From assembly GCA_004297165.1 (NCBI GenBank), contig SCUJ01000006.1, positions 1,052,464-1,116,463 on the forward strand: a stretch of 64,000 bases of DNA. Reading direction: 5' to 3'. The position numbers were made by a program, and so were the translations under genes. The notes under the pieces are model-generated. The model saw only the letters and a list, made by a program, of their open reading frames with translations. It did not search any database and was not told where the DNA came from. This document shows positions 15,519 through 64,000 of the stretch, one piece after another. The number at the start of each line of letters is the position of its first letter. The first letter of the stretch is position 1. Source of the stretch: Gammaproteobacteria bacterium. GTDB lineage: Bacteria; Pseudomonadota; Gammaproteobacteria; Eutrophobiales; Eutrophobiaceae.

Positions 15519-16013
15519 TTGATCATGGCATTACCTGGAGTCCGGTTATTCGACATGAACACAACGATTACAGGGGATTCGTTGCTGATCCGGGAGGCCC
15601 GCGCCGACGACCTCGCGGCCATCATCGGGATCGATGATCAGGTCACCAACATCGCCAAGCCCGAATACTGGCGGGATATGTTCACCCAATACGAACTTAA
15701 CCGGGAACACCGGTTTTTTTTGGTGGCGGACGAGTACGCGAAGGTCGTCGGCTTCATCATCGGCGAGGTCCGGGCCTGGGAATTCGGTTCCGCGCCCTGC
15801 GGCTGGGTCTTTGCCATCGGCGTCGATCCCGCCCGTCGCCAGTCCCAGGTCGCATCCAGAATGCTCGCCGCGCTCTGCGATCAGTTCGCGCAGGCCGGCG
15901 TCACCAAGGTGCGCACCATGACCTCCCGCCAGGATCACGTCCTGCTTTCCTTCTTCCGCAGCCAGGGGTTGATGGCCGGTCCGTATCAGCAACTGGAGAA
16001 GGACCTGTCATGA
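15519..16013 (+). CDS. GNAT family N-acetyltransferase
   Basis: Acetyl-CoA-binding core (VFAIGVDPARRQSQVASRMLAAL). The start may instead be the internal Met at 15555. Confidence 0.75.
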   Translation: MIMALPGVRLFDMNTTITGDSLLIREARADDLAAIIGIDDQVTNIAKPEYWRDMFTQYELNREHRFFLVADEYAKVVGFIIGEVRAWEFGSAPCGWVFAIGVDPARRQSQVASRMLAALCDQFAQAGVTKVRTMTSRQDHVLLSFFRSQGLMAGPYQQLEKDLS

Positions 16014-16486
16014 AACTTCAGCGCGCGACGCTGCTCGGCCTCTACGCCATCATTGAACTCGCCGATCAGCCGGATCTGCAACTCTCCCGCAGTGAGATCG
16101 CGCGCAAGTTCGATGTCTCCAGCAATCATTTGTCGAAGGTGATGCGCGAGCTCGGCAAGGCCGGGCTCGTGGAGGCCGTGCGCGGCGTCGGCGGCGGCTA
16201 TCGTTTCTGCGGCAACGCCAGACGCACCACGCTGCTCGATATCATCCAGATCTTCGAGGACTTCCGCTTCGACAGCCCGGACCAGCGGGAGCCGGGGATG
16301 GGTACCGAGATCGGCAAGGCCCTGGACCTCGTGCTTGGCGAGATCAACGAAAGCATAAACTCGACCTTGCGTTCCATCAGCCTCGCCACGATGTTGATGT
16401 TGAAAAATCGCCGCCAGGCTGTACCATCCGAACAGAGCACAGGTGATTCCTCGATTCAGTCATCCAGACCGGGACAATTATCATGA
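16010..16486 (+). CDS. Rrf2 family transcriptional regulator (BadM/IscR-like wHTH)
   Basis: MKLQRATLLGLYAIIELA...SRSEIARKFDVSSNHLSKVMRELGKAGLVEAVRGVGGGYRF is a canonical Rrf2 N-terminus. ATGA overlap with the flanking GNAT genes. Confidence 0.8.
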   Translation: MKLQRATLLGLYAIIELADQPDLQLSRSEIARKFDVSSNHLSKVMRELGKAGLVEAVRGVGGGYRFCGNARRTTLLDIIQIFEDFRFDSPDQREPGMGTEIGKALDLVLGEINESINSTLRSISLATMLMLKNRRQAVPSEQSTGDSSIQSSRPGQLS

Positions 16487-17484
16487 GTGAAGTAGACGCC
16501 CTTCCCTTAACCCGCCCCCTCACCGCCAGCGATTTCGATCAAGTGGTGGCCATCGACGCCAAGATCATCGGCCGATCCCGGCCCGGATTTTTCAGGAAAC
16601 GGCTCGCGGCTGCCCTCGCGGAGCCGGGCTATTTCATTTATATCGCCTGCGAGAGCGAAAACAAGTTGCAGGGCTTCCTGCTGGCGCGCCTGCTGGGCGG
16701 CGAATACGGGGAAGCGCAATCGATCGCCGTGCTGGACGCCCTCGGCGTCGCGCCGGTGAGCCAGGGGAAAGGCATCGGCACCCTGCTGATTCAGGAATTC
16801 GAACGGATCCTGCGGCGCAAACACATGCGCGAGATCCAGACGCAGACGGATTGGCGGCGTTTCAGTTTCCTGCGCTTTCTGTTCGCCAACGGCTTCCTGG
16901 TCGCGCCCGTGTATGTGCTGGAACGGGAGGTCAGCAATCTCGATACACGCCTGCGTGTCGATCCCGTGGCGAATCATGAAACCGCGAGCGGCGAACTCGA
17001 TTACAGCGATACCGGGACCCGCGGCGGCGAAACCCTGGCGCGCGATCGCGTGCCCTGCCGGAGCCTCGCAAGAGGCGATCTCGAAACGCTGATCCGCATC
17101 AACCGCAAGGTCACGGGCCTCGAGATGCGGGAGTTCTTTCAGCGCAAGGTGAAGGAGGTCCTGGACGAATCGGGCATCCGCGTCTCGCTCGTCGCGGAAG
17201 TGGACGGCCAGCCGGCTGGTTTCATCATGGCCCGGGTCGATTACGGCGAATTCGGCCGCACCGAGCCCGCCGCCGTGCTAGACGCCATCGCCGTCGATCC
17301 GGCCTATGGCCGGCAGCAGGTCGGCAGCGCCCTGCTATCGCAACTGCTTTCCAATCTCACGAGCCTCCGGCTCGAAGCCATCCGGACAGTGGTGCTGTCC
17401 AACCGCTTTGATCTCCTCAGTTTTCTGACGAAGAACGGATTCAAGCCGGGGCAGAGGCTGACCTTCTCCAAGCGGATTGATTGA
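16483..17484 (+). CDS. Tandem-GNAT (two acetyltransferase domains) protein
   Basis: 333 aa with two GNAT cores (…LDALGVAPVSQGKGIGTLLIQ… and …LDAIAVDPAYGRQQVGSALLSQ…). Confidence 0.75.
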   Translation: MSEVDALPLTRPLTASDFDQVVAIDAKIIGRSRPGFFRKRLAAALAEPGYFIYIACESENKLQGFLLARLLGGEYGEAQSIAVLDALGVAPVSQGKGIGTLLIQEFERILRRKHMREIQTQTDWRRFSFLRFLFANGFLVAPVYVLEREVSNLDTRLRVDPVANHETASGELDYSDTGTRGGETLARDRVPCRSLARGDLETLIRINRKVTGLEMREFFQRKVKEVLDESGIRVSLVAEVDGQPAGFIMARVDYGEFGRTEPAAVLDAIAVDPAYGRQQVGSALLSQLLSNLTSLRLEAIRTVVLSNRFDLLSFLTKNGFKPGQRLTFSKRID

Positions 17485-17566
17485 AATGGTTAGGTTCGCT
17501 GGAGTGGCGTTTTATCGATATACAAAAGGCGGAAATGAAAACGGCTTTTGGGCTGGGTACTAATAG

Positions 17567-18034
17567 TTGGGCCGCATATCAGCCATGACCACTCGCCCAC
17601 CCTCACAAGATCAACAATCGCTGGCGCATCTGCTTGATGTCGAGATCGGCGGCGATACCTTTGACGTAGCTGCCGCTAGAGTCATGGATGCAGTTGCACC
17701 GGCTATCGGCTATGAACCAGCGGAGCAGTCGAGCGAACGTCAGCGAGAATTTGCCAAATCGATTGGGCTAAACGTAATCGCAGACTCCAAACGAGTAGCG
17801 AGCGCAAAGATAGGCGAGGCGCTCTTCGCGAAGAACCAAGACGCAATTGCCACGCTGAATTTGAAACCACGAGACAGTGTCGTTCGTGTTGAGCACTTTG
17901 AGCACGAGGGAGAAATGCGCTCGGTCGAACAAGAATTTATCGTGTCGTCCATCCAGCGCAATGGGCGTGTATTCTTCAAGGGCGGCAACGGCCAGGGTGC
18001 TTGGCCTACGCAGCTAAGAAAACATGCGGGCTAA
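17567..18034 (+). CDS. Hypothetical protein (no recognisable domain); first ORF of the AT-richer islet
   Basis: 155-aa ORF. Lower GC than its surroundings. Followed by an AT-rich 277-bp spacer. Confidence 0.4.
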   Translation: MGRISAMTTRPPSQDQQSLAHLLDVEIGGDTFDVAAARVMDAVAPAIGYEPAEQSSERQREFAKSIGLNVIADSKRVASAKIGEALFAKNQDAIATLNLKPRDSVVRVEHFEHEGEMRSVEQEFIVSSIQRNGRVFFKGGNGQGAWPTQLRKHAG

Positions 18035-18311
18035 CCCGGCGGTCAACACGGTCCCGCGCAATCGGCGCTGCTCGCCGCTTGCACGAGCTGGTTACCTTGG
18101 ACGTTGAGGCTGTAGAAAAAGCCTATTTTGAAGGAAGCATCAAGGTAATTCGATATCAGGTTCATTCGCTATGAATTTAGAGTAATGTTGTTGCCACCAG
18201 ACAATAAAATATTACCTCTAAAGCGTTTGATGCGCCTGTGGCAATGTGTTTGACGCGGATCTGGAATAATATCTGCTTGCGTCAATTTTACAAATCACCC
18301 TGTTTTCGTAC

Positions 18312-19094
18312 TTGTTCTACAGGCTCATTAGCCGCCAAGGAGGTTCGGTGAATCGCCTACACTTCACGCCCCCTTTCTGTCCCAGTGCGCTACCGTCGTG
18401 GGGGTGCCCGCATTGCAGTGATGGCGCACTCGCGCTCGTCAAGAAATCACTACGAGTCGAAGAGACTTCGGAATCCAAAAAAGACCGAAGTCACCCGGAC
18501 TGGGATCCGGAATGGATTAGGCAGAGATTTTCTATTCTGTTGCGATGCGGTCAATGTCACGAGCCTGTTTTTGCCGTTGGTAACGTGCGGTTAAAGGAAG
18601 ACCATGATGATGTCCACGGTTGGTCTTTGGCTGATGCGTTGGTCCCAACATTCTTTGAGCCCGCACCGCCCGTTATTCGGATTCCACCAGCTTGCCCAAA
18701 GGAAGTGGGTGCTGAAGTCACGGGGGCAAGCGCGTTGTACTGGTCAAGCCCATCCTCTGCGGCCAATCGAATCCGCGCTGCTATCGAGAGGCTTATGGAT
18801 GATCGCGGTATTTCTAGGAAAGGCAAGACTAAGAATGGAAAGTTCGTCGATCTCACTCTGCACGCCAGAATCGAGCGATTCGCAACAAAGAATCAAGAAG
18901 TCGGTCAAACGTTACTCGCCATCAAATGGTTGGGAAACACCGGAAGTCATTCAATGGACCTGACGGCAGACGATATGCTCGATGCGTTCGAACTACTCTT
19001 GCATGCTCTCGAAGAGATTTACGAGTCGAAATCCTTTCGTCTTAAGAAGCTTGCATCTTCAATCATCAAGAAGAAAGGCCCCGTTACAAAATGA
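18312..19094 (+). CDS. Hypothetical protein: N-terminal C4 zinc ribbon (CPHC...CGQC) plus a C-terminal region with a DUF4145/HEPN-like K-x2-GN-x3-H signature
   Basis: 260 aa. CxxC-x33-CxxC near the N-terminus. C-terminal ...LLAIKWLGNTGSHSMDLTADDMLDAFELLLHALEEIY... resembles the R..GN..(A)H core of DUF4145 (Pfam PF13643), recalled from memory, not searched. Confidence 0.45.
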   Translation: MFYRLISRQGGSVNRLHFTPPFCPSALPSWGCPHCSDGALALVKKSLRVEETSESKKDRSHPDWDPEWIRQRFSILLRCGQCHEPVFAVGNVRLKEDHDDVHGWSLADALVPTFFEPAPPVIRIPPACPKEVGAEVTGASALYWSSPSSAANRIRAAIERLMDDRGISRKGKTKNGKFVDLTLHARIERFATKNQEVGQTLLAIKWLGNTGSHSMDLTADDMLDAFELLLHALEEIYESKSFRLKKLASSIIKKKGPVTK

Positions 19095-19376
19095 AAACGG
19101 CTAACCCGGCAGTCTGAGGGACCTCCACGAATTCATGTCCCAAAGCTCTCTGCTTGAGCCCTTGAGAGAAGACCCGTGATGGCATTACTGAGAGCGGTTC
19201 ACAAAAGCGTCGTAATTGGCCGTCTCCAGAGTCCCCGCCCCAGGAAGGGTATCGACAGAACGTGACAGCGAAACTCGGTATTAGCTAGTTTTTAACGGTG
19301 CAGGCCACTCTCACGTGCTGCCAGGCCGAGTAGTCGTGTTGGGCTGAATGGAATGAAGCCCAACATTATTATTTCT

Positions 19377-19406
19377 GCGTGGGCACGAAAAACGTGCCCA
19401 CCCTAC
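19377..19406. repeat. REP-like palindromic element copy 1 (GCGTGGGCAC-GAAAAAC-GTGCCCACCCTAC)
   Basis: Perfect 8-bp inverted repeat with a 7-nt loop plus a conserved CCTAC tail. Three copies in the window. Confidence 0.6.
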
Positions 19407-19422
19407 CCTGCTGAAGGATGCT

Positions 19423-20112
19423 GTGGGGCTCTGGCAGTTCGCTGAACCTTGCCTCTATTATCCCTATCACGATCATTTTGAAAAGGTTGCGACATCGCTT
19501 GAGCGTATCTGTCGCGAGGGCAACAAGGAAGACATGGAAACTTGGGGGCGCATTTCAGCCCTTGCCTCCCTGACGGGTCATATCGACTTTGCCCATTTGC
19601 TTGGCGCATTGAACAAACTGGATATTACCGAAGCGTGGCAGGGGGCAGCGAGTGTTTGGACCCACCCTAACAATATCAAACAACACCGCGAGCAATGCCT
19701 TGCAGGTATCGAAGCGGGACTGAAAGAAGACATCTCTCATGCAGCGGCAGTCGCTCGACAAGTAGACAAAATCTTCCGGGATAATGCTCCACCGACCCCC
19801 ATCCCGATAGAATTGGTTCGGCTTTGCTTTAGCGTGTTCGAAAACGATAGCGAAAACAAACATCACCGCCTGTTTGGATTTGACGACTGGCTCAATGCCA
19901 CTTCGCAGCGCGACCCGGAGCTCGCCTTAGCCGCAACCGAAATTTACCTAGCCTATATTAGTCGTACCAAACCATATTTTTATGACCATGAAAATCGACT
20001 TGTCCAGCTAATGACCAGGCTTTTTGCTGAAGCTGAGGAAAGGGAAGAATCCGATCAAGGTGTAATGCTTAAACGCGTAGTATCAGTTCAAGATATACTG
20101 TTATCATTGTGA
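19423..20112 (+). CDS. Hypothetical protein (predicted alpha-helical, no recognisable domain)
   Basis: 229-aa ORF in the islet. Lies directly upstream (97 nt) of the orphan higA-like gene. Confidence 0.4.
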   Translation: MGLWQFAEPCLYYPYHDHFEKVATSLERICREGNKEDMETWGRISALASLTGHIDFAHLLGALNKLDITEAWQGAASVWTHPNNIKQHREQCLAGIEAGLKEDISHAAAVARQVDKIFRDNAPPTPIPIELVRLCFSVFENDSENKHHRLFGFDDWLNATSQRDPELALAATEIYLAYISRTKPYFYDHENRLVQLMTRLFAEAEEREESDQGVMLKRVVSVQDILLSL

Positions 20113-20208
20113 GTGAATTCTATCGACGATTGGCTAAAGGCCGCCGAGAGACAATAAGTCAGCTCTCGTGATAACGAGTAAATAGTTGACTACCATTAAA
20201 GAAATATC

Positions 20209-20508
20209 ATGACCAAGAGAGACATTTCACCTATTCATCCCGGCGAGATCCTGCTGGAAGAATTTCTTTTGCCGATGGGTATTTCCCAATATCGCCTGGC
20301 AAAAGATATCAGCGTACCTCAACGTCGCATAAGTGAAATTGTCCAGGGAAAACGCTCGATTACTGCCGACACTGCCTTGCGCCTGGGTCGTTATTTCAGG
20401 ATGGAGGCGCAATTCTGGCTAAATCTCCAGTCTCGTTTCGATCTCCTGAATGCTGAAACAGAGCTGGCCAAACGGCTGGATAAAGAAGTCGTCCCACATG
20501 CTGCTTGA
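20209..20508 (+). CDS. higA: HigA-family addiction-module antitoxin (XRE-type HTH)
   Basis: 99 aa; ...GEILLEEFLLPMGISQYRLAKDISVPQRRISEIVQGKRSITADTALRLGRYF... is the characteristic HigA HTH. No RelE/HigB-like ORF nearby. Confidence 0.8.
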   Translation: MTKRDISPIHPGEILLEEFLLPMGISQYRLAKDISVPQRRISEIVQGKRSITADTALRLGRYFRMEAQFWLNLQSRFDLLNAETELAKRLDKEVVPHAA

Positions 20509-20609
20509 TAAAACGGATTATAACAATCCAACAACGATTTTTTCGGCGAGTGAAATCTGGATTTTGCTGCACCGCATCCTGGCTTGATTGTCGATATCCG
20601 CGTGGGCAC

Positions 20610-20640
20610 CAACAGCGTGCCCACCCTACGAAATCTGGAT
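20610..20640. repeat. REP-like palindromic element copy 2 (GCGTGGGCAC-CAACAGC-GTGCCCACCCTACG)
   Basis: Same family as 19377-19406. Lies between the convergent higA and fdx genes, overlapping the fdx stop. Confidence 0.6.
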
Positions 20641-20882
20641 TATCCGTGGATCCGATCGTATTTCGCTTGTAGATCTTCCTGGGTCTCCTCCCAGTCCGGA
20701 TTGGGGACGATGCAGGCGGAGGGACAGACGGCCCGGCATTGCGGTTCGTCCTCGGCGCCCACGCACTCGGTGCATTTCATCGGGTCTATCCGATAGGGTT
20801 CGCCGGCGGTGATTGCCTCGTTGGGACAGGGATCCACGCAGGCATCGCACATCGTGCAGTCGGCATTAATCATCAAGGCCAT
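20640..20882 (-). CDS. fdx: 2[4Fe-4S] ferredoxin (YfhL/Fdx-type, 80 aa), probable electron donor to benzoyl-CoA reductase
   Basis: Two CxxCxxC...CP cluster motifs (CTMCDACVDPCP; CTECVGAEDEPQCRAVCP). Immediately downstream of bcrD, as in the Thauera bcrCBAD-fdx arrangement (established knowledge). Confidence 0.8.
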   Translation of the reverse strand: MALMINADCTMCDACVDPCPNEAITAGEPYRIDPMKCTECVGAEDEPQCRAVCPSACIVPNPDWEETQEDLQAKYDRIHG

Positions 20883-20956
20883 TGGTCAGTCTCCACAATA
20901 ATTCTTTTTTCGGGTTGAAACAGCTTTTCATAATGACTCGCGTATTGCAATTCCTG

Positions 20957-21796
20957 TCACGCCGCCCGGTTCGCGGCCAACTCCTCCAGCCGCGTATGCC
21001 GGTACGCGCCCCAGAGCGCGGCGCCGATCGCGCCGGCATAGATCGAATCGGGATGGGACAGGACCTTGACGTCCATCTTCTGCGCCGTGACCGCCTCGTT
21101 GAGTGCGGCGATCAGGCCGACATCGGTGGCGAGCCCGCCGGTGGTCATGACAATCCCCTCCTTGACCTTGATCGATTTAAGTAGTTTGGCCATGCGATCC
21201 GCCATGGAGATGTGGATCCCCTTCAGGATGTTGCTCGCGCTGATGCCCCGCGAGACCATGTTGATGACATCGGTCTCGGCCAGCACCGCACAGATGCTGC
21301 TCACGGCCTCCGGGTCATCGCTCTTCAGCGAGAGCTCGCCGATCTCGTCCTGGGCGACGCCGAGATAACGGGCGATGTTCTCCAGGAACTGGCCGGAGCC
21401 CGAGGCGCACTGGCTGGTCATCTTGTAACCGAGCACCTTGCCGCGGGGATCAATCTTGATGGCCCGGCCGTGCAGCGCGCCGATATCCATCACCGACAGG
21501 GTCTGGTCGTTGAGATAGACCGCGCCGCGCGCATGCGTGGTCATGGAGTAGAAATGGCCGGTGCTGTAGGCGATGCTCTCGCCCTCGCCGGTCGTCGCGC
21601 AATAATCGATGGCCTTACGCTCGAGATGGTTGCGCTTGAGGACCTCGTCATAGGCCTGCTCAGTAAGCGCGAACGGGTCCTGTGTGCGGATCCGGTAGCA
21701 ACTCTTGTCCAGCCATTCGGTCTTGTCGCCCGTCGTTCTGAACAAGGCCAGCTTTACCGCGCTGGCGCCGATATCTATGCCCGCTGTCGTGACCAT
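20957..21796 (-). CDS. bcrD: Benzoyl-CoA reductase subunit D (BcrD/BadG; BadF/BadG/BcrA/BcrD ATPase family)
   Basis: Start MVTTAGIDIGASAVKLALFR is an acetate/sugar-kinase-fold ATPase N-terminus. About 280 aa as for Thauera BcrD. The start is 1 nt after the bcrA stop. The ORF track start at 22078 is an over-extension. Confidence 0.8.
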   Translation of the reverse strand: MVTTAGIDIGASAVKLALFRTTGDKTEWLDKSCYRIRTQDPFALTEQAYDEVLKRNHLERKAIDYCATTGEGESIAYSTGHFYSMTTHARGAVYLNDQTLSVMDIGALHGRAIKIDPRGKVLGYKMTSQCASGSGQFLENIARYLGVAQDEIGELSLKSDDPEAVSSICAVLAETDVINMVSRGISASNILKGIHISMADRMAKLLKSIKVKEGIVMTTGGLATDVGLIAALNEAVTAQKMDVKVLSHPDSIYAGAIGAALWGAYRHTRLEELAANRAA

Positions 21797-24432: not shown

Positions 24433-25610
24433 GCGTTTTCACCCCACAGTTTGATGGAATCGGCGAAGGTGCCCGCCTGTTCGCGGATCGGCTGCATCTG
24501 CCCGGAGTTCTCCGCGTATTTGAAAGCGATATAGGGGATGCCCGCGGCATTGAGGGCATCCTGGAGCATCGGGCGCTCCAGCAGGGCCGGGTCGCAGAAG
24601 CTCGGCGCGGCGAAGATAACGCCTTCCGCCCCGCTCTTGCGCACGGCCTCGACCAGGTACTGCCCCTTGTCGGCCTCGATCGGCTCGTAGGTGGCCGAGG
24701 TCTTGGTGGAATGATGCAGGAAGGCGCGCGCCAGGGCCTCGATCGGGTCCCCCGTCTCGCTGACCGGTTCCTGCATCCACCGGTTGATCAGCATGAAGTC
24801 GTCATCCACGACATAACAGCCGGCGAGTTCGAGCGACTTGATGAGATTGAGCGGCGGTTGCTCGCAGAACATCCCGCTGAGGACGATCTTGCAGTTGTCG
24901 CGGCGTGGACGATCCGCGCTCCTCGCGGCCTTGATATAGGATTCGACAAGGACATTGTGATCCTCCACGGGGAGCAGCATCCCGGCGCGGGAGAGCAGAT
25001 AGGCTTCTGTGGCCGGAACCTTCCAGGGTTCTGCGGCGCGCAAAATGTAAAGTTCCTTGATTAATTCGCGGTTGCGGTTGAAGAGCACAATGGATACGCG
25101 CAGCGCCGCATCCGTGATCTCGTTGCCGCTGAGATTTTCGAAATCGTGCCGCAGCTCCTGCAATTCATTGACATAGAATTCGCCGCCGACCCGATCGTCA
25201 TAATTCTGCGGCATGTCGTAGTAATGCGCGTACATGTCGGGGCGGATCAGTTGCAGCATCCCGGTGAGATTCCGGATGACGTCGCAGATGCTGGGGAAGA
25301 GCATGCCGTCGACAAAATCCAGCCGTTTAGTCAGGAACAATTCGATGGTCGAACGGGGTATCCGGCAGATGTAACTTTGATAATACGCGTCGCCCTGGAT
25401 GACCTCGATCTGATCGCCGCCGCCAAAGATGCCGAGCGGCAGCATGCCCGCGGCGTGGATCAACTCCCGCGGCACATAGATGGGCATGAAACCGACGACC
25501 TTGCGATCCGGTTCCGCCGCCTTCCATTCCCTTGCGGCGGTGAAGTGCAGGTCTTCAAACAGGGACTGGCAGCGCTGGATGATCTGGTCGGTGGTGGCCA
25601 TGTCTCTCAT
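24429..25610 (-). CDS. bcrC: Benzoyl-CoA reductase subunit C (BcrC/BadD; HgdA/HgdB-like)
   Basis: 393 aa. 4-nt overlap with bcrB. Order C-B-A-D as in Thauera aromatica. Confidence 0.8.
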   Translation of the reverse strand: MRDMATTDQIIQRCQSLFEDLHFTAAREWKAAEPDRKVVGFMPIYVPRELIHAAGMLPLGIFGGGDQIEVIQGDAYYQSYICRIPRSTIELFLTKRLDFVDGMLFPSICDVIRNLTGMLQLIRPDMYAHYYDMPQNYDDRVGGEFYVNELQELRHDFENLSGNEITDAALRVSIVLFNRNRELIKELYILRAAEPWKVPATEAYLLSRAGMLLPVEDHNVLVESYIKAARSADRPRRDNCKIVLSGMFCEQPPLNLIKSLELAGCYVVDDDFMLINRWMQEPVSETGDPIEALARAFLHHSTKTSATYEPIEADKGQYLVEAVRKSGAEGVIFAAPSFCDPALLERPMLQDALNAAGIPYIAFKYAENSGQMQPIREQAGTFADSIKLWGENA

Positions 25611-25680
25611 CTCTTAATGAATCTCTTCGTTATTGTTCCGCTTTGCGGTATAACAGGCAATCAACAAAGTAGAGCAAGTT

Positions 25681-25695
25681 TAATTCCAGGAATTA
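25681..25695. promoter_or_regulatory. Perfect palindrome TAATTCC-A-GGAATTA in the AT-rich divergent bcrC/korA promoter region; candidate operator
   Basis: Seen directly in the 177-bp intergenic region, which also contains several TATAAT-like runs (ggtataataatactataatact). Confidence 0.3.
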
Positions 25696-25787
25696 CATGG
25701 GATTGTCAATAATGGTATAATAATACTATAATACTACTTAGTCAATCAGGACCAACAATCCCCGATCCGATCCGGAGTTTATACATT

Positions 25788-27536
25788 GTGAATTCGAACA
25801 GTCAGAGTCATTTAGTCTCCACTGGCGCCCTTTCCGTCGCCGTGGTCGGCAGTGGCGGGGCCGGGGCCATCACGACCGGTACATTATTACTCGAGGCCGC
25901 GTCACGACAGGGGCATTACGGCATTCTCACCCGCACCGTCGGTCCCCAGATCCGCGGGGGCGAGGCCGCCGCCCTGGTGCGCCTCGGCACGCAGCCCATC
26001 GATTGCATCGGCGACGGCTTCGACATCCTGCTCGCCATGGACTGGAATAATTTCGATCGCCTTGCCGCCGAGATCCCGCTCTCGACGAAAAGCTTGATCA
26101 TCGCCGACCCTGAACAGGGCGATGTACCCGAGGTCGTCCGCGACACCGGGGCCGTTATCTGCAACCTGCCCATCGGCGAGCTGGCGAAGGCCGTTAACAA
26201 GGGCCGGCCCAACATGCTCGCGTTCGGCATTATCGCCGAGTTGCTGGACCTGCAAACCGCATCGGTCGGGGCCGTGCTTGAAAAGCAACTCGCGAAGAAG
26301 GGCGAACAGGCCTTGCAGAGCAGCCTGGAAACCGTGCGTGCGGGCCGCGCCGCTGCAACCGGACTCGCCAAGCGAACCCTGGCGGGTCAAGGCTCGCGGC
26401 AGGACGGCCGCTGGTTGATCACAGGCAATCATGCCTGCGGCTACGGGGCGTTGCGGGGCGGGATCCGCTTCGTGGCCGCCTATCCCATCACCCCGGCGAC
26501 CGAGGTCCTGGAATGGCTGTCCTCCGGGCTTATGAAGTCCGGCGGGCGGCTGGTTCAGGCGGAGGATGAATTGGCCTCCATTAACATGATCGTCGGCGCC
26601 TCCTACGGGGGCATCCCATCTCTGACCGCGACCTCCGGCCCCGGCTTGTCTCTCATGATGGAAAGCCTGGGGCTTGCGGTAGCCGCCGAGATCCCGCTAG
26701 TCGTGATCGATGTGATGCGCGTCGGGCCTTCCACGGGCATCGCCACCAAGGCCGAGCAGAGCGACCTGAACATCGCCGTCTACGGATTCCATGGCGACGC
26801 CCCGCACGTGGTCGTGGCGCCGAACTCGGTCGGTGATTGCGTCGCAACCACGCAGTGGGCCGTGCAACTGGCGGAGTCCATGCAGGCGCCGGTGATTGTC
26901 CTCACCGATCAGTACATGGGACAGACCAAATCCATCATCGATCGACCTGCCTTGGCGGAGGCCGGGGCCGGGCGGCTCACGTGCGACAACCCCGCGCCCG
27001 ATTACGCGCGTTATGCCAATACCGAGAGCGGCATCTCGCCCATGACGATCCCTGGAACTCAGGGCGGACAATACACCGCGGACGGTCTGGAACATTCGGT
27101 CAAGGGCATCCCCTCGACGCGGGCGGAAGATCACGAACAGCAGATGGAGAAGCGCCGGCGCAAGATCCATGACTTCGACTACGGCGAGCGGTGGGCGGAT
27201 GTGGAGGGTGCGGGTCGGCACGCCATACTGACCTGGGGCTCGACCACCGGGGCGGTGCGCGAGGCGCTCGATCAATTGCGGCGCACTGGCGTGGATGACA
27301 TCAAACTCATATCGCTCCGCCTGATCACGCCGGCACAGCCGGAGAAATTCGCGGAAGCGATCGCGGGCGTCGACCGGGTCCTGGTCATCGAACAGAATCA
27401 TTCCGGGCAACTGCGGCATTTTCTGCGCGCCCACTACGACCTGCCCAAGGACATCGAATTTTACAACCGGGCCGGCCCCATCCTGTTCCGGCCGGGCGAG
27501 ATTGGCGACTGGATCAAACAATGGAGGTCGGCATGA
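25788..27536 (+). CDS. korA: 2-oxoglutarate:ferredoxin oxidoreductase alpha subunit (fused gamma/alpha)
   Basis: 582 aa. N-terminal catalytic gamma-like domain (AVVGSGGAGAITTG) then the alpha pyruvate-flavodoxin-oxidoreductase core. Paired with a TPP-binding beta subunit. Adjacent to the bcr genes, as KorAB regenerates reduced ferredoxin in Thauera. Confidence 0.85.
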   Translation: MNSNSQSHLVSTGALSVAVVGSGGAGAITTGTLLLEAASRQGHYGILTRTVGPQIRGGEAAALVRLGTQPIDCIGDGFDILLAMDWNNFDRLAAEIPLSTKSLIIADPEQGDVPEVVRDTGAVICNLPIGELAKAVNKGRPNMLAFGIIAELLDLQTASVGAVLEKQLAKKGEQALQSSLETVRAGRAAATGLAKRTLAGQGSRQDGRWLITGNHACGYGALRGGIRFVAAYPITPATEVLEWLSSGLMKSGGRLVQAEDELASINMIVGASYGGIPSLTATSGPGLSLMMESLGLAVAAEIPLVVIDVMRVGPSTGIATKAEQSDLNIAVYGFHGDAPHVVVAPNSVGDCVATTQWAVQLAESMQAPVIVLTDQYMGQTKSIIDRPALAEAGAGRLTCDNPAPDYARYANTESGISPMTIPGTQGGQYTADGLEHSVKGIPSTRAEDHEQQMEKRRRKIHDFDYGERWADVEGAGRHAILTWGSTTGAVREALDQLRRTGVDDIKLISLRLITPAQPEKFAEAIAGVDRVLVIEQNHSGQLRHFLRAHYDLPKDIEFYNRAGPILFRPGEIGDWIKQWRSA

Positions 27537-35580: not shown

Positions 35581-36933
35581 ATGCAAAACAAGAATAACAA
35601 CGACTCCTTCGAATCCCTCTCCCCTGCCGAAAAGCTCCAGTTTCGCCTGGATGCCTGGAAAGAAAGCGCCGGACGGACCTTCGCGTCGGATGAGGTCAGA
35701 GACCTCTACCGAAAGCGCGTCGGCCGTCTGATCGACGCCATGACCCTAAAGGATTCCGGGGAGACGCCGGCGGCCTTGCTGATCGGCGGCTACACGGCGC
35801 GCTTCGGCGGCGCGAGCCAGGCGGACATCTATTACAACAGCGAAAACATCTGCAAGGCGGTGATCCGCTTCATCGAGGAATTCAAACCTGACTATGCCTT
35901 CGGCACCATGGCGCCGACCGGACCCATCTATGACCTGCTCGGTTACAACACCTATCGCTGGCCGGGCGGGAAACTCCCCCCGGACGTCTCCTTCCAGTAC
36001 GTCGAGGGCGAATATATGCCCGCCGGCGATTACGACGCCCTGATCAACGACCCTACGGGCTACATGATGCGCCGCTATGCCCCGCGGGTCTTCGACAACC
36101 TGAAAGGTCTGGCCCGGATGCCCAATTTCTTCAAGACCATGCAGATCACCGAGGTCATCAGCATGGTCATGGCCTTCACCCATCCGGAGTTGCGTGAGGC
36201 GCTCGAGAGATTGCTCAAGGCCGGCGAGATGCTGAAGGCCGGGATGGAGAAATCCCGCAAGACCAACCTGGAATTGACGGAACGCTACGGCGTCTCGGGT
36301 TTCTTCACCAACATCTGCTTCGCGCCCTTCGACATGATCGGGGACACGCTGCGCGGCACCCAGGGCGTGCTGATGGACATCTACCGCCGCCCCGACAAGC
36401 TGCTCGCCGCCTGCGAGGCCGTGGTCCCTGCCGCCATCGACATGTCCATCACCAACCGCATGCCCGGCGCCCCGCCGATCTCCTTCATCCCCCTGCACAA
36501 GGGCGCGGACGCCTTCATGTCGCGCGAACAGTTCAAAGTCTTCTATTGGCCAACCCTGCGCAAGCAGATCGACGGCATCATCGAGGCGGGCATGATCCCC
36601 CTGCTCTTCGTCGAGGGCGGTTACGACAAGCGCCTCGACCTCATCGCCGAGGCGGGACTGCCGAAAGGCAAGACCGTCTGGCTGTTCGACCGCACCGATA
36701 TGCAAAAGGCGAAGGAGTATCTGGGCGATGTCGCCTGCATCGCCGGCAACGTCCCCGCCTCGCAGTTTTCCGCGGGCACGCCGGAGAGCATCGAGGAACA
36801 ATGCCGGCAACTGATAGCAACCGCCGGCAAGGGTGGCGGCTTCATACTTTCATCCGGCAGCCCCATCGATCAGGCCAAGGCGGAAAACGTTCATGCCTTC
36901 TACCGGGCTGGAAGGAAATATGGCTTGAAGTAG
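35581..36933 (+). CDS. Uroporphyrinogen decarboxylase (URO-D) family protein (MtaA/CmuA-like methyltransferase fold; function unknown)
   Basis: About 450 aa with URO-D-like TIM-barrel segments. Start taken at MQNKNNND (the track ORF starts at 35509). Confidence 0.65.
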   Translation: MQNKNNNDSFESLSPAEKLQFRLDAWKESAGRTFASDEVRDLYRKRVGRLIDAMTLKDSGETPAALLIGGYTARFGGASQADIYYNSENICKAVIRFIEEFKPDYAFGTMAPTGPIYDLLGYNTYRWPGGKLPPDVSFQYVEGEYMPAGDYDALINDPTGYMMRRYAPRVFDNLKGLARMPNFFKTMQITEVISMVMAFTHPELREALERLLKAGEMLKAGMEKSRKTNLELTERYGVSGFFTNICFAPFDMIGDTLRGTQGVLMDIYRRPDKLLAACEAVVPAAIDMSITNRMPGAPPISFIPLHKGADAFMSREQFKVFYWPTLRKQIDGIIEAGMIPLLFVEGGYDKRLDLIAEAGLPKGKTVWLFDRTDMQKAKEYLGDVACIAGNVPASQFSAGTPESIEEQCRQLIATAGKGGGFILSSGSPIDQAKAENVHAFYRAGRKYGLK

Positions 36934-36996
36934 GCTTCTGTCTGCCTATACTTGTAGTTGAGTGGTAGCCACTTCACCTGCCACGATCCGTGGCAC

Positions 36997-37036
36997 GAAC
37001 CCCCGTCCCGCCAATGGCCCCACGGGGGTTCTTCGT
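36997..37036 (+). terminator. Candidate rho-independent terminator (GAACCCCCGT-15 nt loop-ACGGGGGTTC followed by TTCGTT)
   Basis: 10-bp perfect GC-rich stem 64 nt after the URO-D-family stop. Preceded by a second small hairpin CCACG-atc-CGTGG at 36981-36993. Confidence 0.4.
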
Positions 37037-37438
37037 TAAGGCCAACTACGCCTTCCGGTTTTAGCCCGCCAGCTCCTACCCATTCAAACCAGCCCCTGGA
37101 TATGAAAAGCTGGGCCCTATCATAAAAATTGGGCGCAGTAAATAGTCCATTTGCATCCCTCCTGGCATCGGATATAGACTTTGTCCAGATCTAGTATTTC
37201 ATACTGAATATTTAATGAGATTAAACACATTTTCCTACCCAAAACAGGGTATATCAATGATGGAACGACGAGGGTAGAATTTTCAACTATAGTGAAACAG
37301 ACCTTCCACCACTGCATAAAATTTACAGAGTAAGACCATAAGATTACAGAACTTTTTCGATAGATATTTTCGCGAAGGGTTGCACGAGATCTTAAACCGG
37401 TAATCCCATGCCTCGGCAGTTACAGTGGAGTCTTCGTA

Positions 37439-37906
37439 GTGGCTAAAACGGCAACATTGGTTCAACTGGTCCTGTTCATCGTTGACGAGCAAACCTACGC
37501 GCTGCCGCTGGCCGCGGCGGAGCGGGTCCTGCGCATAGTCGAAATCACGCCCCTGCCGGGAGCCCCCGACTCCGTCGAAGGCGTCATCAATATTCAGGGC
37601 GATGTGGTCATTGTCGTGAGCGTCCGCAGACGCCTCGGCCTTGCCGAACGGTCGGCAGGGGCGGCCGACAGCCTGATTGTGGCGCGAGCGCGCGCCAGGC
37701 GAGTCGCCATCATCGCGGAGTCCGTGGTGGGCGTTGTAGAGCGCCCGGTTGACGCTGTGGTAAGCGCCGGCCACATCACGCCCGGCATCGAACCTATCGA
37801 GGGCGTGCTCAAGACGAGTGAAGGCCTGGTATTGATCCACGATCTGGACCGGTTCTTCTCGGCTACGGAAGAACAGTTCCTGGATCAGGCCCTGGAAAGG
37901 CTCTGA
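37439..37906 (+). CDS. cheW: Chemotaxis coupling protein CheW (WspB-like)
   Basis: 155 aa single CheW domain (…YALPLAAAERVLRIVEITPLPGAPDSVEGVINIQGDVV…). Confidence 0.8.
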   Translation: MAKTATLVQLVLFIVDEQTYALPLAAAERVLRIVEITPLPGAPDSVEGVINIQGDVVIVVSVRRRLGLAERSAGAADSLIVARARARRVAIIAESVVGVVERPVDAVVSAGHITPGIEPIEGVLKTSEGLVLIHDLDRFFSATEEQFLDQALERL

Positions 37907-58662: not shown

Positions 58663-58692
58663 CGTGGGCACAAACAACGTGCCCACCCTACG
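58663..58692. repeat. REP-like palindromic element copy 3 (CGTGGGCAC-AAACAAC-GTGCCCACCCTACG)
   Basis: Same family as 19377 and 20610. Again between convergent genes. Confidence 0.6.
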
Positions 58693-59769: not shown

Positions 59770-60646
59770 GCAGGGTATGTCCGGTAAGTTTCAGAAACAG
59801 GTCCTCCAGGGTAGGCTGCCGCACGCTCAGGGAATTCAACTGGGCGCCGTGCTGGATCAGCCGTTGCAGTGTGTCGTTGACCGAGCGGCTCTGGATCTCG
59901 ATCCGGCCGTTTTTCCGCGCGACCGGCTCGCCGATTTCGATGCCCAGCGGATCGAAATCCTGCGTGTCAATACAGACATAGAAATATCCGAAATGCTCCT
60001 TGAGCAGGGCCGTCGGAGAGCCCTCCGCGATTATCCGGCCATGATCGATGATGATCAGGTGATCGCAGAGGATCTCCGCCTCATCCATGTAATGAGTCGT
60101 CAACAGGACGGTCTTGCCCTGCGCCTTGATCCGTTCGATCAGTTTCCAGAGGTTGCGGCGCGATTGCGGATCGAGTCCGGTGGTGGGCTCGTCGAGGAAG
60201 ACGATCTCCGGGTCATTGATGAGCGAGAGGGCGAACATCAGGCGCTGCTTCTGGCCGCCTGAGAGTTTCGTGGCCGTCTGCTCCAGCAACGATTCGAGGT
60301 CACAGAGCGCGATCAGTTCGGGGAGCGGCAGGGTCTTGGCATAAAGCGAATGAAAGAGTTCCAGGATCTCGCGGGTCTTCAAGTGGTCCATCATCGAGGT
60401 GGCCTGGAACTGAATCCCCGCCTGCAGGCGGAAACTGGCATCGCGCGGAGCGCCGCGAAAGAGGATCTCGCCCGTGGTCGGGCGGGTGATTCCCTCGATC
60501 ATCTCGATGGTGGTGGTCTTGCCGGCGCCGTTCGGTCCAAGCAGGCCGAAACAAATGCCTTCCGGGATCTGGAAGGAGATATCGGCTACGGCGACCAGGT
60601 CCTTGAAACACTTCCTGAGATTGCGGACTTCCAATATGGCAGACAT
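59762..60646 (-). CDS. ABC transporter ATP-binding protein
   Basis: Start MSAILEVRNLRKCF. Walker A GPNGAGKTT, signature LSGGQKQR, Walker B IVFLDEPTTGLD. The track ORF is over-extended to 60799. Confidence 0.85.
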   Translation of the reverse strand: MSAILEVRNLRKCFKDLVAVADISFQIPEGICFGLLGPNGAGKTTTIEMIEGITRPTTGEILFRGAPRDASFRLQAGIQFQATSMMDHLKTREILELFHSLYAKTLPLPELIALCDLESLLEQTATKLSGGQKQRLMFALSLINDPEIVFLDEPTTGLDPQSRRNLWKLIERIKAQGKTVLLTTHYMDEAEILCDHLIIIDHGRIIAEGSPTALLKEHFGYFYVCIDTQDFDPLGIEIGEPVARKNGRIEIQSRSVNDTLQRLIQHGAQLNSLSVRQPTLEDLFLKLTGHTLRE

Positions 60647-61037
60647 GATTTGGATCAGATAATGTTGGGCATCATTTGTAGTTTCACGAACATCTCGACA
60701 TTCTTCCAGCAGGCGCTGCACCGGGCTTATCATCGCAGATAATCTCCGGGCTTGCCACAATCCACACCGGGTTGATTGGATACGCGCAAGGCGCCGCAAT
60801 GGCCTTCGCGCTGACTTTCAGCTAAGCTTACCGCTCGAATCTTTCATAATATAACAGCCAAAACACTCGCGCCCTCGGTGGGCGCGCTCAAGCAATGGCA
60901 GATGGCGCGGGTTACTCAAACCCGTGGAAATGTTATCGAACCTGGCAGCTTTGCTGACCCTGCCAATACGGGCGGGGATTCAGGGGTTCACTCAAGCATG
61001 GCTTACATGCAGAACAAGAAGCTACGGATAGATTTCG

Positions 61038-63404
61038 ATGATGCGACTGAAAAGTCTGACCAGCCGAATGGTGGTGTTTTATTCGCTGCTGCTTGCGGCG
61101 GCGCTCATCATCGTATTCATTCTGGTTACCAATTCCGGTTATAAAATCGCCCGCCAGCAGAACAATCAGGAGCTGGCGACCGGCGAGCGGGTATTTCGTC
61201 AATCGCTGATCCAGAACCAGCAACAGTTAACCCTGGCGGCCAATGTCTTGGCGGCGGATTACGGCTTTCGCAACGCAATCACCAGCAACGATCTCGATAC
61301 GATACTGTCGGCGCTGAATAATCATGGCAGGCGCATTCAGGCCAGTCTGATGATGCTGGCGTCGCTCGATGGCGAGATGATCGCCTCGACTCTGGATCCC
61401 TCATATCAGGGACAAACACTGACAGCCCCGGAATTGATACAGAAGGCCGAAGCAGCGGGATTTTTTACCGATATTCTGCGCGCCGGACGCAATGTATACC
61501 AAATCGTCGTCGTCCCGGTTTTGGCGCCCCAACCTGTTGCCTGGATAATCCTCGGTTTTATCATCGACAACCGGCTGGCGCTGGACCTGCAGGCGTTAAC
61601 TTCACTACACATCAGTTTTTTTGCCAATAACGACGACGGCTCCTGGTCGATCCTGGCATCCACGCTGCCGCAAGCATTACAGGAAGATATGTTATCCGCC
61701 GTGAGCGCGACGGCGGGAAGGGATACTGGAATCAAACCAATGGAGATCGACGGTTATGCATCCCTGCTCACACCCCTGAGCCTGATACAGAACTGGAAGA
61801 TTGTCGCGTTGTTACAACGCTCGACGGTTGAGGCCATGCAACGCTTCGACCCCCTGCGCACGACATTGCTGATACTGGCGTTGGTCAGTCTGGGTCTGAC
61901 TATCCTGGGCAGCATCTTTATTGCCAGAAACATCACCCGTCCCATTAACGATCTTTCATTGCTGGCGCAAAAGATTAAGGATGGGGATTACAGCCAGGCT
62001 GCCGAAGCGACGGATATCAGGGAAATCGGCACGCTGGCGGAAAGCATCAACCTGATGCGGGAAGCGATCGCGACCAGGGAATCCGAGATCCGCAGGCTCG
62101 CCTATGAAGACACCTTGACCGGTCTGCCTAACAGAATCATGTTCAACAACGAACTGAACAGGATGACCAGGACGGCGTTCGAACGGGGCGAGCGTTTCCG
62201 CGTGCTGTTACTCAACCTGAACCGGTTCAAGGACATCAACGATATTCTCGGGCATGATGCCGGGGATGATGTCCTCAGGTTCGTGGCGAAACGTTTGCCT
62301 GGCGTCCTGCGGGAGACCGACAAGGTCGCCTGCATGGGCGGTGACGAATTTGCTGTCATGTTGCCGATGGGTTCAGCCGATCATCTGGACATCGTCATGC
62401 CGCGCATTCTTGCAAATCTCGAAAAGCCGTTCATGGTGGCGAACCAGTTGGTGGATATCACCTTCAGCATCGGGATAGCGAACTTCCCGGAACATGGCAT
62501 GGACGCTGGTTCCCTGATCAGATGCGCCGATATCGCCCTCAATAGCGCCAAGCGGCACCGGAACGTCTATGAGGTTTACGACAGCAATCTCGAAGCGAGT
62601 CGGCAGGAACATCTGCACTTGCTTGGCGATTTGCGCAGTGCCGTGGAAAACAACGAACTTTGTCTTTACTACCAGCCCAAGGTTCAGTTATCCACTGGCA
62701 AAACTGTCGCCGCCGAATCCTTAATCCGTTGGCGACATCCGGTACGCGGCTACATCGCCCCGAATGAATTCATCCCTTTCGCGGAACATACTGGCATCAT
62801 CAGGATGATATCAGCCTGGGTTATTGAGAATGCATTGAGGCAAATCGGGGTCTGGCAAGCAAGAGGATTGCAACTCGGGCTTTCCGTGAACATCTCGGCG
62901 CGGGACCTTCTGAACGATAAATTGCCGGGGATGCTCGAATCGCAACTGCGGGAAAATGGTCTCGCGCCAGAGTCGATATGCCTGGAAATAACCGAAAGCG
63001 CCCTGATGGAAAACCCCGTTAATTCCCAACATACGGTGCTCGGACTGCACGGCATGGGTCTGGAGATCTCCATCGACGACTACGGAACGGGCTACTCATC
63101 GCTGTCATATGTAAAGAATCTACCCGTGGATGAGTTGAAAATAGATCGGGCATTTATAATGCACATGGACGAAAATGAAAATGATCTCGCGATCGTCCGG
63201 TCGACCATCGACCTGGGACATAGCCTGGGTCTCAGGGTCGTGGCGGAAGGAGTGGAAACTGAAAGACAGTATAATCTGCTGCGCAGCCTGGGATGCGATC
63301 TGGCACAGGGTTATTACATTGCAAAACCCATAATCGCCGATGAATTTGAAGCCTGGCTTAACGGCAATAAACCGATCGAGTCGCTGCGCACGCTGCAAGC
63401 CTGA
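61038..63404 (+). CDS. Membrane sensor protein: periplasmic double-sensor (Cache-like) domain-TM-HAMP-GGDEF (intact GGDEF)-EAL (ESL variant)
   Basis: TM1 near the N-terminus, ~270-aa periplasmic region, TM2, HAMP, GGDEF (CMGGDEFAV), EAL domain with AESLIRW and DDYGTGYSSL. Confidence 0.8.
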   Translation: MMRLKSLTSRMVVFYSLLLAAALIIVFILVTNSGYKIARQQNNQELATGERVFRQSLIQNQQQLTLAANVLAADYGFRNAITSNDLDTILSALNNHGRRIQASLMMLASLDGEMIASTLDPSYQGQTLTAPELIQKAEAAGFFTDILRAGRNVYQIVVVPVLAPQPVAWIILGFIIDNRLALDLQALTSLHISFFANNDDGSWSILASTLPQALQEDMLSAVSATAGRDTGIKPMEIDGYASLLTPLSLIQNWKIVALLQRSTVEAMQRFDPLRTTLLILALVSLGLTILGSIFIARNITRPINDLSLLAQKIKDGDYSQAAEATDIREIGTLAESINLMREAIATRESEIRRLAYEDTLTGLPNRIMFNNELNRMTRTAFERGERFRVLLLNLNRFKDINDILGHDAGDDVLRFVAKRLPGVLRETDKVACMGGDEFAVMLPMGSADHLDIVMPRILANLEKPFMVANQLVDITFSIGIANFPEHGMDAGSLIRCADIALNSAKRHRNVYEVYDSNLEASRQEHLHLLGDLRSAVENNELCLYYQPKVQLSTGKTVAAESLIRWRHPVRGYIAPNEFIPFAEHTGIIRMISAWVIENALRQIGVWQARGLQLGLSVNISARDLLNDKLPGMLESQLRENGLAPESICLEITESALMENPVNSQHTVLGLHGMGLEISIDDYGTGYSSLSYVKNLPVDELKIDRAFIMHMDENENDLAIVRSTIDLGHSLGLRVVAEGVETERQYNLLRSLGCDLAQGYYIAKPIIADEFEAWLNGNKPIESLRTLQA

Positions 63405-63418
63405 GGGTATCTATCCGA

Positions 63419-64000
63419 ATGAAACGGAGTCCGCTGGCGATCATCTGGCTTTTGCCAAGCCTGCTGCCCTTTTCGCAACCCGTTAGCGCCGAATGGCTGC
63501 TGGATTCTTCAATCGCCCTGCAAATCAACGATAATCTGCCGAATGCCTCACTGGATCAGGATATCAAGAGCGACACAGCGTTTGACTTCGGGTTCTCGCC
63601 CGGTTTTTATTCCCAGATTTCGGGCGCCACGAGTCTGGCTGTAAGTGCTGATCTGGGCATCACGCGGCAGTTTGATTATAAGGATCTGGATCTGATTGCA
63701 ATCGGTTTGACTGGCTCTGTAAGACACAAATTCGGCCTGGGTAATTCAGCTCCGTGGGCCAGGATCGCGGGTTCCGCAAGCTACCTTGAGTATAAGGACG
63801 GCCAGCGGGATGGATGGTTTTACGCGGCGTCGATTGAAGGGGGGAAACAGCTGGCGGAACAGCTATCGATATGGGGCGGTTACAGGTTCGAGCTGCGCCG
63901 TGCCGAGCAGATAATCTCGATCCCGGCATTGGTCAGTAATTTCGGCATCGGCGGGGAGGCATTCGATACGGCTGCACATAACCTGGATATCAACGCAGCG
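63419..64000 (+). CDS. Secreted hypothetical protein, probable outer-membrane beta-barrel; 3' end beyond window
   Basis: Hand translation: MKRSPLAIIWLLPSLLPFSQPVSAEW..., with a signal peptide then alternating hydrophobic/polar beta-strand-like segments. No stop before 64000. Confidence 0.4.
   Translation, partial: MKRSPLAIIWLLPSLLPFSQPVSAEWLLDSSIALQINDNLPNASLDQDIKSDTAFDFGFSPGFYSQISGATSLAVSADLGITRQFDYKDLDLIAIGLTGSVRHKFGLGNSAPWARIAGSASYLEYKDGQRDGWFYAASIEGGKQLAEQLSIWGGYRFELRRAEQIISIPALVSNFGIGGEAFDTAAHNLDINAA

Follow-up and report, generated by a model that had tools for sequence, protein, structure and literature searches.

The gene PD-T7-4 of Escherichia coli UMB1727 was renamed RAZR (ring-activated zinc-finger RNase) in 2026. 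Its product joins a zinc-finger domain to a DUF4145 HEPN RNase in which R146 and H154 are essential, and 24 copies assemble round phage portal or Gp77 rings, which leads to cleavage of single-stranded RNA (ssRNA) and aborted infection (PMC13017515). Fusions of a zinc ribbon with DUF4145 had already been catalogued in 2013 (PMC3710099), and PD-T7-4 is reported to rank among the commonest defence genes of integron cassettes (bioRxiv 10.1101/2024.07.02.601686). A gene of this general architecture lies in a small AT-richer islet (positions 17485-20639) of a 64,000-nucleotide stretch of contig SCUJ01000006.1 (assembly GCA_004297165.1), from a gammaproteobacterium of the family Eutrophobiaceae; this whole stretch is called the window in the following. 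The islet is probably one allele, of mosaic make-up, of a defence hotspot that is supplied horizontally and varies between strains; it contains a RAZR-like abortive-infection candidate, a gene cassette, and relics of other systems. The hotspot would be situated between a BadL/BadM-like GNAT-Rrf2-GNAT operon and the fdx-bcr (benzoyl-CoA reductase) operon, and would represent a mosaic rather than a single system.

The GC content of the islet is 0.503 versus 0.612 in the rest of the window, and the lowest-GC stretch of 3155 bp in the entire 64 kb begins at 17401. At third codon positions, the four open reading frames (ORFs) of the islet have a GC content of 0.48-0.55, compared with 0.73-0.86 in the flanking GNAT, Rrf2, fdx, and bcr genes. 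These values bear out the initial annotation, which was made from the nucleotide sequence alone and proposed a composition different from the surroundings, although the latter have about 61% GC and not the supposed 65%. The region 18100-18300, which had been singled out as AT-rich, is indeed so, but the deepest trough inside the islet is found at 19950-20250 (0.40). Likewise, four ORFs on the same strand are present as described, but the starts of two had to be corrected and a third, of 229 amino acids, turned out to be a gene fragment. Other stretches of lower GC content in the window (0.45-0.55; 60500-63500, 36500-37500, and 25500-25950) are milder than the islet. An Rfam scan of 17000-21000 retrieved no RNA families at E<=1.

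The GNAT - Rrf2 - tandem-GNAT operon (15519-17484) is syntenic with fdx-bcrDA across many Proteobacteria and resembles the benzoate-degradation module of BadL (GNAT) and BadM (Rrf2 repressor) in Rhodopseudomonas palustris (PMC6191541). Seventy-seven loci encoding the tandem-GNAT protein (at most 58% identity) were fetched from other proteobacteria, and the four islet genes are absent from all of them. Both tandem-GNAT and fdx/bcrD are contained in 46 loci, and in most of these they are separated by 12-355 bp, typically by 12-150 bp, as opposed to 3155 bp here. Because the GNAT-fdx adjacency is kept in relatives, the islet is an insertion between the GNAT operon and fdx, which is the outcome that the synteny check suggested in the initial annotation was designed to detect. 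If the operon indeed is BadL/BadM-like, the islet separates a regulator from its target operon.

Contigs of sister strains, which were found by exact look-up of the Fdx protein and share 98.4-99.5% nucleotide identity across fdx-bcr, carry two other arrangements at this site. In variant A (two contigs), the match to the window extends only from 20180 rightwards (breakpoint 20179|20180), and an intact higB gene of 93 codons precedes higA. The DNA upstream of higBA in variant A comprises a module made of a hairpin and a repetitive extragenic palindrome (REP), another REP accompanied by a duplicate of the higA 3' flank, and the beginning of an IS3-like transposase gene. In one of these contigs (L124, 6975-7609; GCA_040960765.1), the two REPs are accompanied by an 84% identical duplicate of the higA 3' flank and by the first codons of the IS3-family transposase at the contig end; this arrangement indicates that rearrangements associated with REPs and insertion sequences (IS) probably occurred repeatedly at the hotspot. 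In variant B (seven contigs), the match begins at exactly 19411 (breakpoint 19410|19411) and continues rightwards with 99.5% identity. This variant carries an intact gene for a nuclease-NACHT protein of 1522 amino acids, followed by a T5orf172 gene that matches the PADLOC candidate PDC-S57 (E=1.5e-21). The window is the third allele of the hotspot. Foreign composition, insertion relative to the 77 related loci, and variable cargo in strains of 98-99.5% identity agree with the earlier proposal of a horizontally acquired islet related to defence or toxin-antitoxin (TA) functions. The idea that the four ORFs and the palindromes make up one system is not supported, as the islet genes were not found to co-occur elsewhere and the palindromes are genome-wide host REPs. 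The supposed lack of any named system for the components is not supported either, since a RAZR architecture, an integron-cassette family, an Avs-like fragment, a higB scar, and REPs were identified.

The intact defence candidate is the zinc-ribbon and DUF4145/HEPN gene (18348..19094, plus strand), a RAZR/PD-T7-4-like candidate for an abortive-infection RNase. Its start most likely is the GTG at 18348, which follows an AAGGAGG ribosome-binding site (18337-43) and yields 248 amino acids as in public data; a 260-amino-acid version of this ORF had no match in an exact look-up. The upstream region (18110..18347, about 47% GC) is AT-rich and presumably contains the gene's own promoter. Pfam confirms the DUF4145 domain named in the initial annotation (E=1.5e-17). 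Among 22 aligned homologues, four cysteines (C20, C23, C67, and C70) are invariant and form an N-terminal Cys4 zinc ribbon. The family alignment also contains a conserved proline-rich linker, an invariant NRIR...E helix, and the motif K-W-L-G-N-x-G-S-H with the invariant H201, and the full-length ORF of the window retains every clade-invariant residue. In the AlphaFold model, which has a predicted local distance difference test score (pLDDT) of 90.5, the N-terminal domain is beta-rich and the C-terminal domain is helical. Eight residues upstream of the invariant histidine, a lysine is found in 40 of 42 family proteins and in all 17 proteins from further loci (Kx7H). Full-length relatives are lone genes that adjoin integrases, methylases, and Abi genes, and 135 plasmids and 13 IMG/VR contigs carry them, as does the P2-like Salmonella phage SEN8. 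On the conjugative plasmid pE5_001 of Enterobacter hormaechei (L119, 2477-3676), a Kx7H homologue is located beside an annotated 'abortive infection protein'. The homologue in SEN8 (L120, 272-1012) is found at the end of the P2-like genome by dinI and gpA and is annotated only as 'DNA binding protein'.

The top PADLOC match of the window protein is PD-T7-4 (PDLC04109, E=9e-4, profile positions 76-188 only), and sister proteins match the same profile with E=4e-5 to 6e-3. The catalytic Arg...His pair of RAZR (R146/H154, Rx7H) is absent from the window protein; here, the lysine position was equated with R146 by inference from its spacing and the DUF4145 motif, not by direct alignment. Because the window protein has 248 amino acids, a longer sensor domain, and lysine in place of the HEPN arginine, it is not a RAZR orthologue and belongs instead to a sister clade with lysine at the canonical arginine position. 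The analogy with RAZR makes an abortive-infection RNase that acts without partners its most likely role. In this scenario, the HEPN domains would form dimers and oligomers, and the zinc-ribbon domain at the N-terminus would bind a ring-shaped phage assembly such as the portal. Ring binding would shift the composite HEPN active sites, leading to the cutting of ssRNA and to a halt of translation and phage production. The RNase activity, the phage trigger, and the defence phenotype are all suggested by this analogy.

Several observations weigh against the proposed role and against the hotspot scenario in which it is embedded. The match to the PD-T7-4 profile is weak (16.8 bits) and spans the HEPN half only, and neither a sequence search nor a fold search retrieved the solved RAZR structures (9Y9C and 9Y6U). 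Compared with the zinc-finger domain of RAZR, the N-terminal domain has about 40 additional residues. The canonical HEPN arginine (R146 in RAZR) seems to be replaced by lysine in nearly all members of the clade, so RNase activity is not assured. A scan of the plus strand upstream of the HEPN gene for the sigma-70 consensus found no promoter. Finally, the comparison with the sister contigs extends leftwards as far as the T5orf172 gene in variant B or the IS3-like start in variant A.

The gene to the left of the HEPN gene, orfA (17585..18034, plus strand), encodes an integron-cassette-type protein. It most likely starts with the ATG at 17585 and has 149 codons instead of the 155 originally assigned. 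Its family comprises 209 cluster representatives, and the window protein is 100% identical to a protein from a gammaproteobacterial metagenome-assembled genome. The predicted fold (pLDDT 96.6) consists of two helical hairpin repeats and an SH3/Tudor-like barrel. Searches with orfA against Pfam, NCBIfam, and PADLOC gave no match, and the gene was not found in viral contigs. In Xanthomonas arboricola, the orfA homologue is the first cassette after intI beside ilvD (two loci), and the R'' core (GGCTAAC) of its attC site overlaps the stop codon. Canonical attC sites also occur on both sides of orfA homologues in metagenome loci; in one locus the homologue is situated 1.2 kb from an intI gene (65% identical), another contains five attC sites, and five further loci likewise show the cassette setting. 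In the window, a cassette-type 5' boundary (GTTGGGCCGCA, 17566-76) is located in the left junction (17485..17584) and aligns with GTTAGCCCGCA, GTTAGGGCGCA, and GTTAGGCCGCA upstream of orfA homologues in integron arrays. The same intergenic region contains a terminator-like hairpin (17497-17519). At the other end of the gene, a degenerate attC-like remnant (18029..18109) has an R''-like GGCTAAC over the orfA stop, which is homologous to R'' of the Xanthomonas cassette, and an imperfect hairpin (18041-18109, GGTCAAC to GTTGAGG) with fold z-scores of -2.8 for the bottom and -0.6 for the top strand. This remnant fails the canonical RYYYAAC/GTTRRRY scan, which includes arm complementarity, and all intergenic regions of the islet are negative in the same scan, which recovers 24 distinct attC sites in control loci. 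No intI gene was detected in the 64 kb by tblastn with the Xanthomonas IntI. Family membership and gene borders suggest that orfA is a stray integron gene cassette, which would have been stranded as cargo in the hotspot. A homologue of 75% identity stands alone in a lipid-A modification operon, with an arnB-like gene on one side and an arnC-like gene on the other (L089, 5970-6860). It has retained GTTAACCCGCA on its upstream side and GGCTAAC at the stop codon, is directly followed by GTAG-type REP-like palindromes, and is another stranded cassette outside an integron.

Two short direct repeats surround orfA and the HEPN gene. The 14-mer AAATGAAAACGGCT occurs in exact copies in the left junction (17533-17546) and at 19089-19102 and brackets both genes as a unit of 1556 bp. 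The 16-mer GGCTAACCCGGCRGTC follows orfA (18029-18044) and, with one mismatch, the HEPN gene (19099-19114). At the 3' end of the latter, the two repeats form a composite element (AAATGAAAACGGCT + GGCTAACCCGGCAGTC, 19089..19114). Each has two copies in the 64 kb, with 0.02-0.13 expected. They may derive from similar attC 5' arms, and this would speak for an origin from a cassette array, or they may represent a recombination scar. As a conserved pair, orfA and the HEPN gene were discarded (0 co-occurrences in 34 loci). It is conceivable, if rather doubtful, that the Kx7H proteins are a RAZR sister family whose larger zinc-ribbon beta-domain senses other phage assemblies and in which lysine catalytically replaces the HEPN arginine, and that the HEPN gene reached the hotspot together with orfA in a two-cassette unit, bracketed by AAATGAAAACGGCT, that was stranded outside an integron. 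If this were true, integron cassettes would be seeds of integrase-less defence islets.

The remaining genes of the islet are remnants of other systems. The 229-amino-acid ORF belongs to a region (19411..20157, plus strand) that corresponds to the last 248 codons of the 1522-codon nuclease-NACHT-helical gene (Avs-like STAND) of variant B. Relatives of this ORF have 307-390 amino acids. The homology begins at 19411, four bases past REP copy 1, and runs through an in-frame TGA (20110-20112) to the natural stop at 20157. Position 20110 is T in the window and G (GGA, Gly) in variant B, and the two alleles differ at 7 sites in 1300 nt. The 5' part of the STAND gene (3.8 kb) is absent from the entire window, so that of the nuclease-STAND-sensor architecture only the C-terminal codons are present. 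The ORF is a truncated, nonsense-mutated pseudogene, presumably what is left of the 3' end of an Avs-like nuclease-NACHT gene after deletion up to a REP. The intact gene has an LmuA/Cap4-like nuclease N-terminus and a NACHT domain (28.8 bits, cut-off 26.7). Searches with the full-length family of the 229-amino-acid ORF against Pfam, NCBIfam, and PADLOC gave no match. In unrelated genomes, the gene for a nuclease-STAND ATPase of about 1150 amino acids is translationally coupled to a second gene of about 388 codons downstream. The two genes overlap by 4-28 nt in three loci and correspond to the single 1522-codon ORF of variant B; in one of these loci the nuclease is an additional separate ORF, and a further locus has the 388-amino-acid part alone. 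Because such split nuclease-STAND units adjoin type I restriction-modification (R-M) or integrase/ParE-Phd genes, the nuclease-NACHT unit appears to be an Avs-like defence system.

The higA gene (20209..20508, plus strand) is intact and encodes an antitoxin with a helix-turn-helix domain (99 amino acids). Its identification in the initial annotation is confirmed by an equivalog-level match above the cut-off (TIGR02607, E=8e-32). The lack of a toxin partner was also noted correctly: the higB gene is missing, and only its final 20 nt are left as a scar (20180..20199) that contains the last six codons (EIVDYH) and the stop, matches IVDYH* in tblastn, and ends 9 nt before the higA start. A larger HigB remnant ('NE*' upstream) was ruled out by the sister-strain breakpoints. 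The closest annotated HigA homologues (60-65% identity; plasmid) are each preceded by a RelE/ParE-family toxin, and the intact HigB of variant A matches Pfam HigB-like_toxin with E=3.7e-19. HigA is intact in all three hotspot alleles, and higB was lost in two. Deletion of higB has left higA orphaned as the remaining member of a higBA pair; the toxin gene would have been removed upon arrival of the STAND element.

The palindromes inside the islet have the structure GTGGGCAC-N7-GTGCCCAC(CCTAC), which can also be written as GTGGGCAC-N7-GTGCCCACCCTAC; their reverse complement, GTAGGGTGGGCAC-N7-GTGCCCAC, shows a GTAG head adjoining a short GC-rich palindrome. Such a GTAG-headed palindrome is the hallmark of one REP superfamily (PMC3733652). 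Besides the two copies in the islet that were already recognized (19379-19406 and 20602-20629), a third exists at 58664-58691. Three copies compare with 0.01 expected, and all are intergenic and of the GTAG type. Copy 1 (feature 19378..19406, GTAG-type on the opposite strand) directly precedes the breakpoint 19410|19411. Copy 2 (feature 20601..20629) lies between the convergent genes higA and fdx and occupies the same place in all sister strains. The third copy is located in a classic REP position between convergent genes that end at 58613 (plus strand) and 58735 (minus strand). Next to copy 1, a terminator-like hairpin with a T-rich tail (GTTGGGC...GCCCAAC, 19337..19376) can be read from the sequence, and the module 19309-19411 is about 80% identical to the hairpin and REP module upstream of higBA in variant A. 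An exact 12-bp direct repeat, GAAATCTGGATT (20552-20563 and 20630-20641), flanks 66 bp that end in copy 2, and its second copy extends over the fdx stop. This repeat looks like a target duplication, and it may have arisen by chance or be a part of the REP unit, because a similar sequence, ATCTGAACTATCTG, comes after the REP at 58664. REPs of this family are also present in two Sedimenticola loci. One of them, from Sedimenticola selenatireducens (L056, 11650-16030), contains at least five exact-core copies in about 4.4 kb, some of which form inverted pairs resembling bacterial interspersed mosaic elements (BIMEs), though the GNAT protein of Sedimenticola is only 41% identical. The palindromes are host GTAG-type REPs and not parts of a defence system; they would have colonised the hotspot, and they mark the junctions of rearrangements.

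The evidence for orfA as a cassette raises the question whether the entire islet is a decayed integron cassette array (a cluster of attC sites, or a single attC site, lacking an integron-integrase; CALIN or SALIN). In this case orfA, the HEPN gene, and higBA would each have been a cassette, captured by an integron integrase acting in trans and inserted at a GTT secondary site by the GNAT stop, and their attC sites would have eroded. A GTTAGGT motif indeed lies 4 nt past this stop (17489-95), orfA belongs to a bona fide cassette family and has kept both boundaries, the 16-mer stands after orfA as well as after the HEPN gene, and the hairpin at 18041-18109 is biased toward the bottom strand. Moreover, all genes have the same orientation, and TA pairs and PD-T7-4 are typical cassette cargo. 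However, canonical attC sites and intI are missing as described above, the HEPN-gene homologues examined elsewhere have no attC flanks, and in the sister strain it is REPs and a promoter/operator, not attC, that border higBA. The STAND gene (4.6 kb) also is far oversized for a cassette. We consider this origin of the whole islet possible, with more reason to doubt than to accept it.

Decay might have gone further than assumed in the hotspot scenario. Two of the five gene units are dead, namely the truncated STAND gene with its fresh nonsense mutation and higB with its 20 remaining nucleotides; no promoter was called, and the HEPN arginine is replaced by lysine. The islet could then be a non-functional graveyard of mobile DNA, in which the ORFs of the HEPN protein, orfA, and higA have merely yet to decay. 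This is unlikely, for the ribosome-binding site of the HEPN gene is strong and its ORF is of full length, with all clade-invariant residues kept, and orfA is of full length as well with a confidently modelled fold. Lysine is what the clade normally has at this position, as seen in more than 50 sequences of plasmid, phage, and chromosomal origin; it is thus conserved rather than a mark of decay. The persistence of HigA in all alleles despite two losses of higB, together with the frequent pairing of HEPN toxins with small antitoxins (PMC3710099), could also be explained if the orphan HigA had been co-opted to act on the HEPN RNase or orfA as an antitoxin or repressor, in a non-canonical TA or regulated defence module. 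This we regard as very improbable: an adjacent HigA was found in none of 17 loci of HEPN homologues and none of 17 orfA loci, 1.1 kb with the terminator-like hairpin, a REP, and the pseudogene separate the HEPN gene from higA, and higA of variant A is accompanied by its own higB.

A mosaic allele of a strain-variable defence hotspot is the reading we prefer. As such the islet is a fairly ordinary defence hotspot of modest novelty, and it offers a base-pair-resolved case of a small chromosomal hotspot that turns over between near-identical strains. Its three alleles consist of higBA, of an Avs-like STAND gene with T5orf172, and of a RAZR-like gene with a stray cassette, and their junctions are located at a REP and within higB. 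For annotation, this means that neither the '229-aa helical unknown' nor the 'orphan HigA' is a novel component; both are relics. The analysis also draws attention to a widespread RAZR sister clade on plasmids, in a P2-like phage, and on chromosomes, which is a target for studying how general ring-activated HEPN immunity is.

With RAZR, the HEPN protein of the window shares the organization as a single gene, the N-terminal Cys4 zinc ribbon, proline-rich linker, and C-terminal divergent HEPN domain (DUF4145) with a conserved histidine, the contexts of mobile elements and defence genes, and PD-T7-4 as best PADLOC match. It differs by its length (248 versus about 211-217 amino acids), by extra beta-hairpins in the zinc-ribbon domain, which is about 40 residues longer (the zinc-finger domain of RAZR comprises residues 1-65), by Kx7H versus Rx7H, and by the marginal profile match (E about 1e-3). 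Integrons such as the ilvD-linked chromosomal integron of Xanthomonas contain orfA homologues with attC directly downstream of intI; the window retains the cassette 5' boundary and the R'' core, and genes of the TA and PD-T7-4 types are typical cassette cargo, but the window lacks intI and canonical attC, and the islet contains a non-cassette gene fragment and REPs. The intact STAND allele of the sister strains resembles Avs-like systems in combining a nuclease, NACHT, and a C-terminal helical region. It matches no named Avs type, the sole partial match being the PADLOC candidate PDC-M54A, and the window has only the remnant of 248 codons with its nonsense mutation. The type II TA system HigBA is represented by the HigA match, by the 9-nt spacing to the higB stop as in intact pairs, and by the intact higBA of the sister strain, whereas in the window higB is cut to its final six codons and the antitoxin is orphaned. 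Finally, like GTAG-tagged REPs and BIMEs (PMC3733652, PMC2817692), the palindromes have a GTAG head and a GC-rich palindrome of about 23 nt, are extragenic and multicopy, lie between convergent genes, and form inverted pairs in Sedimenticola; they differ in that three copies are visible in the 64 kb.

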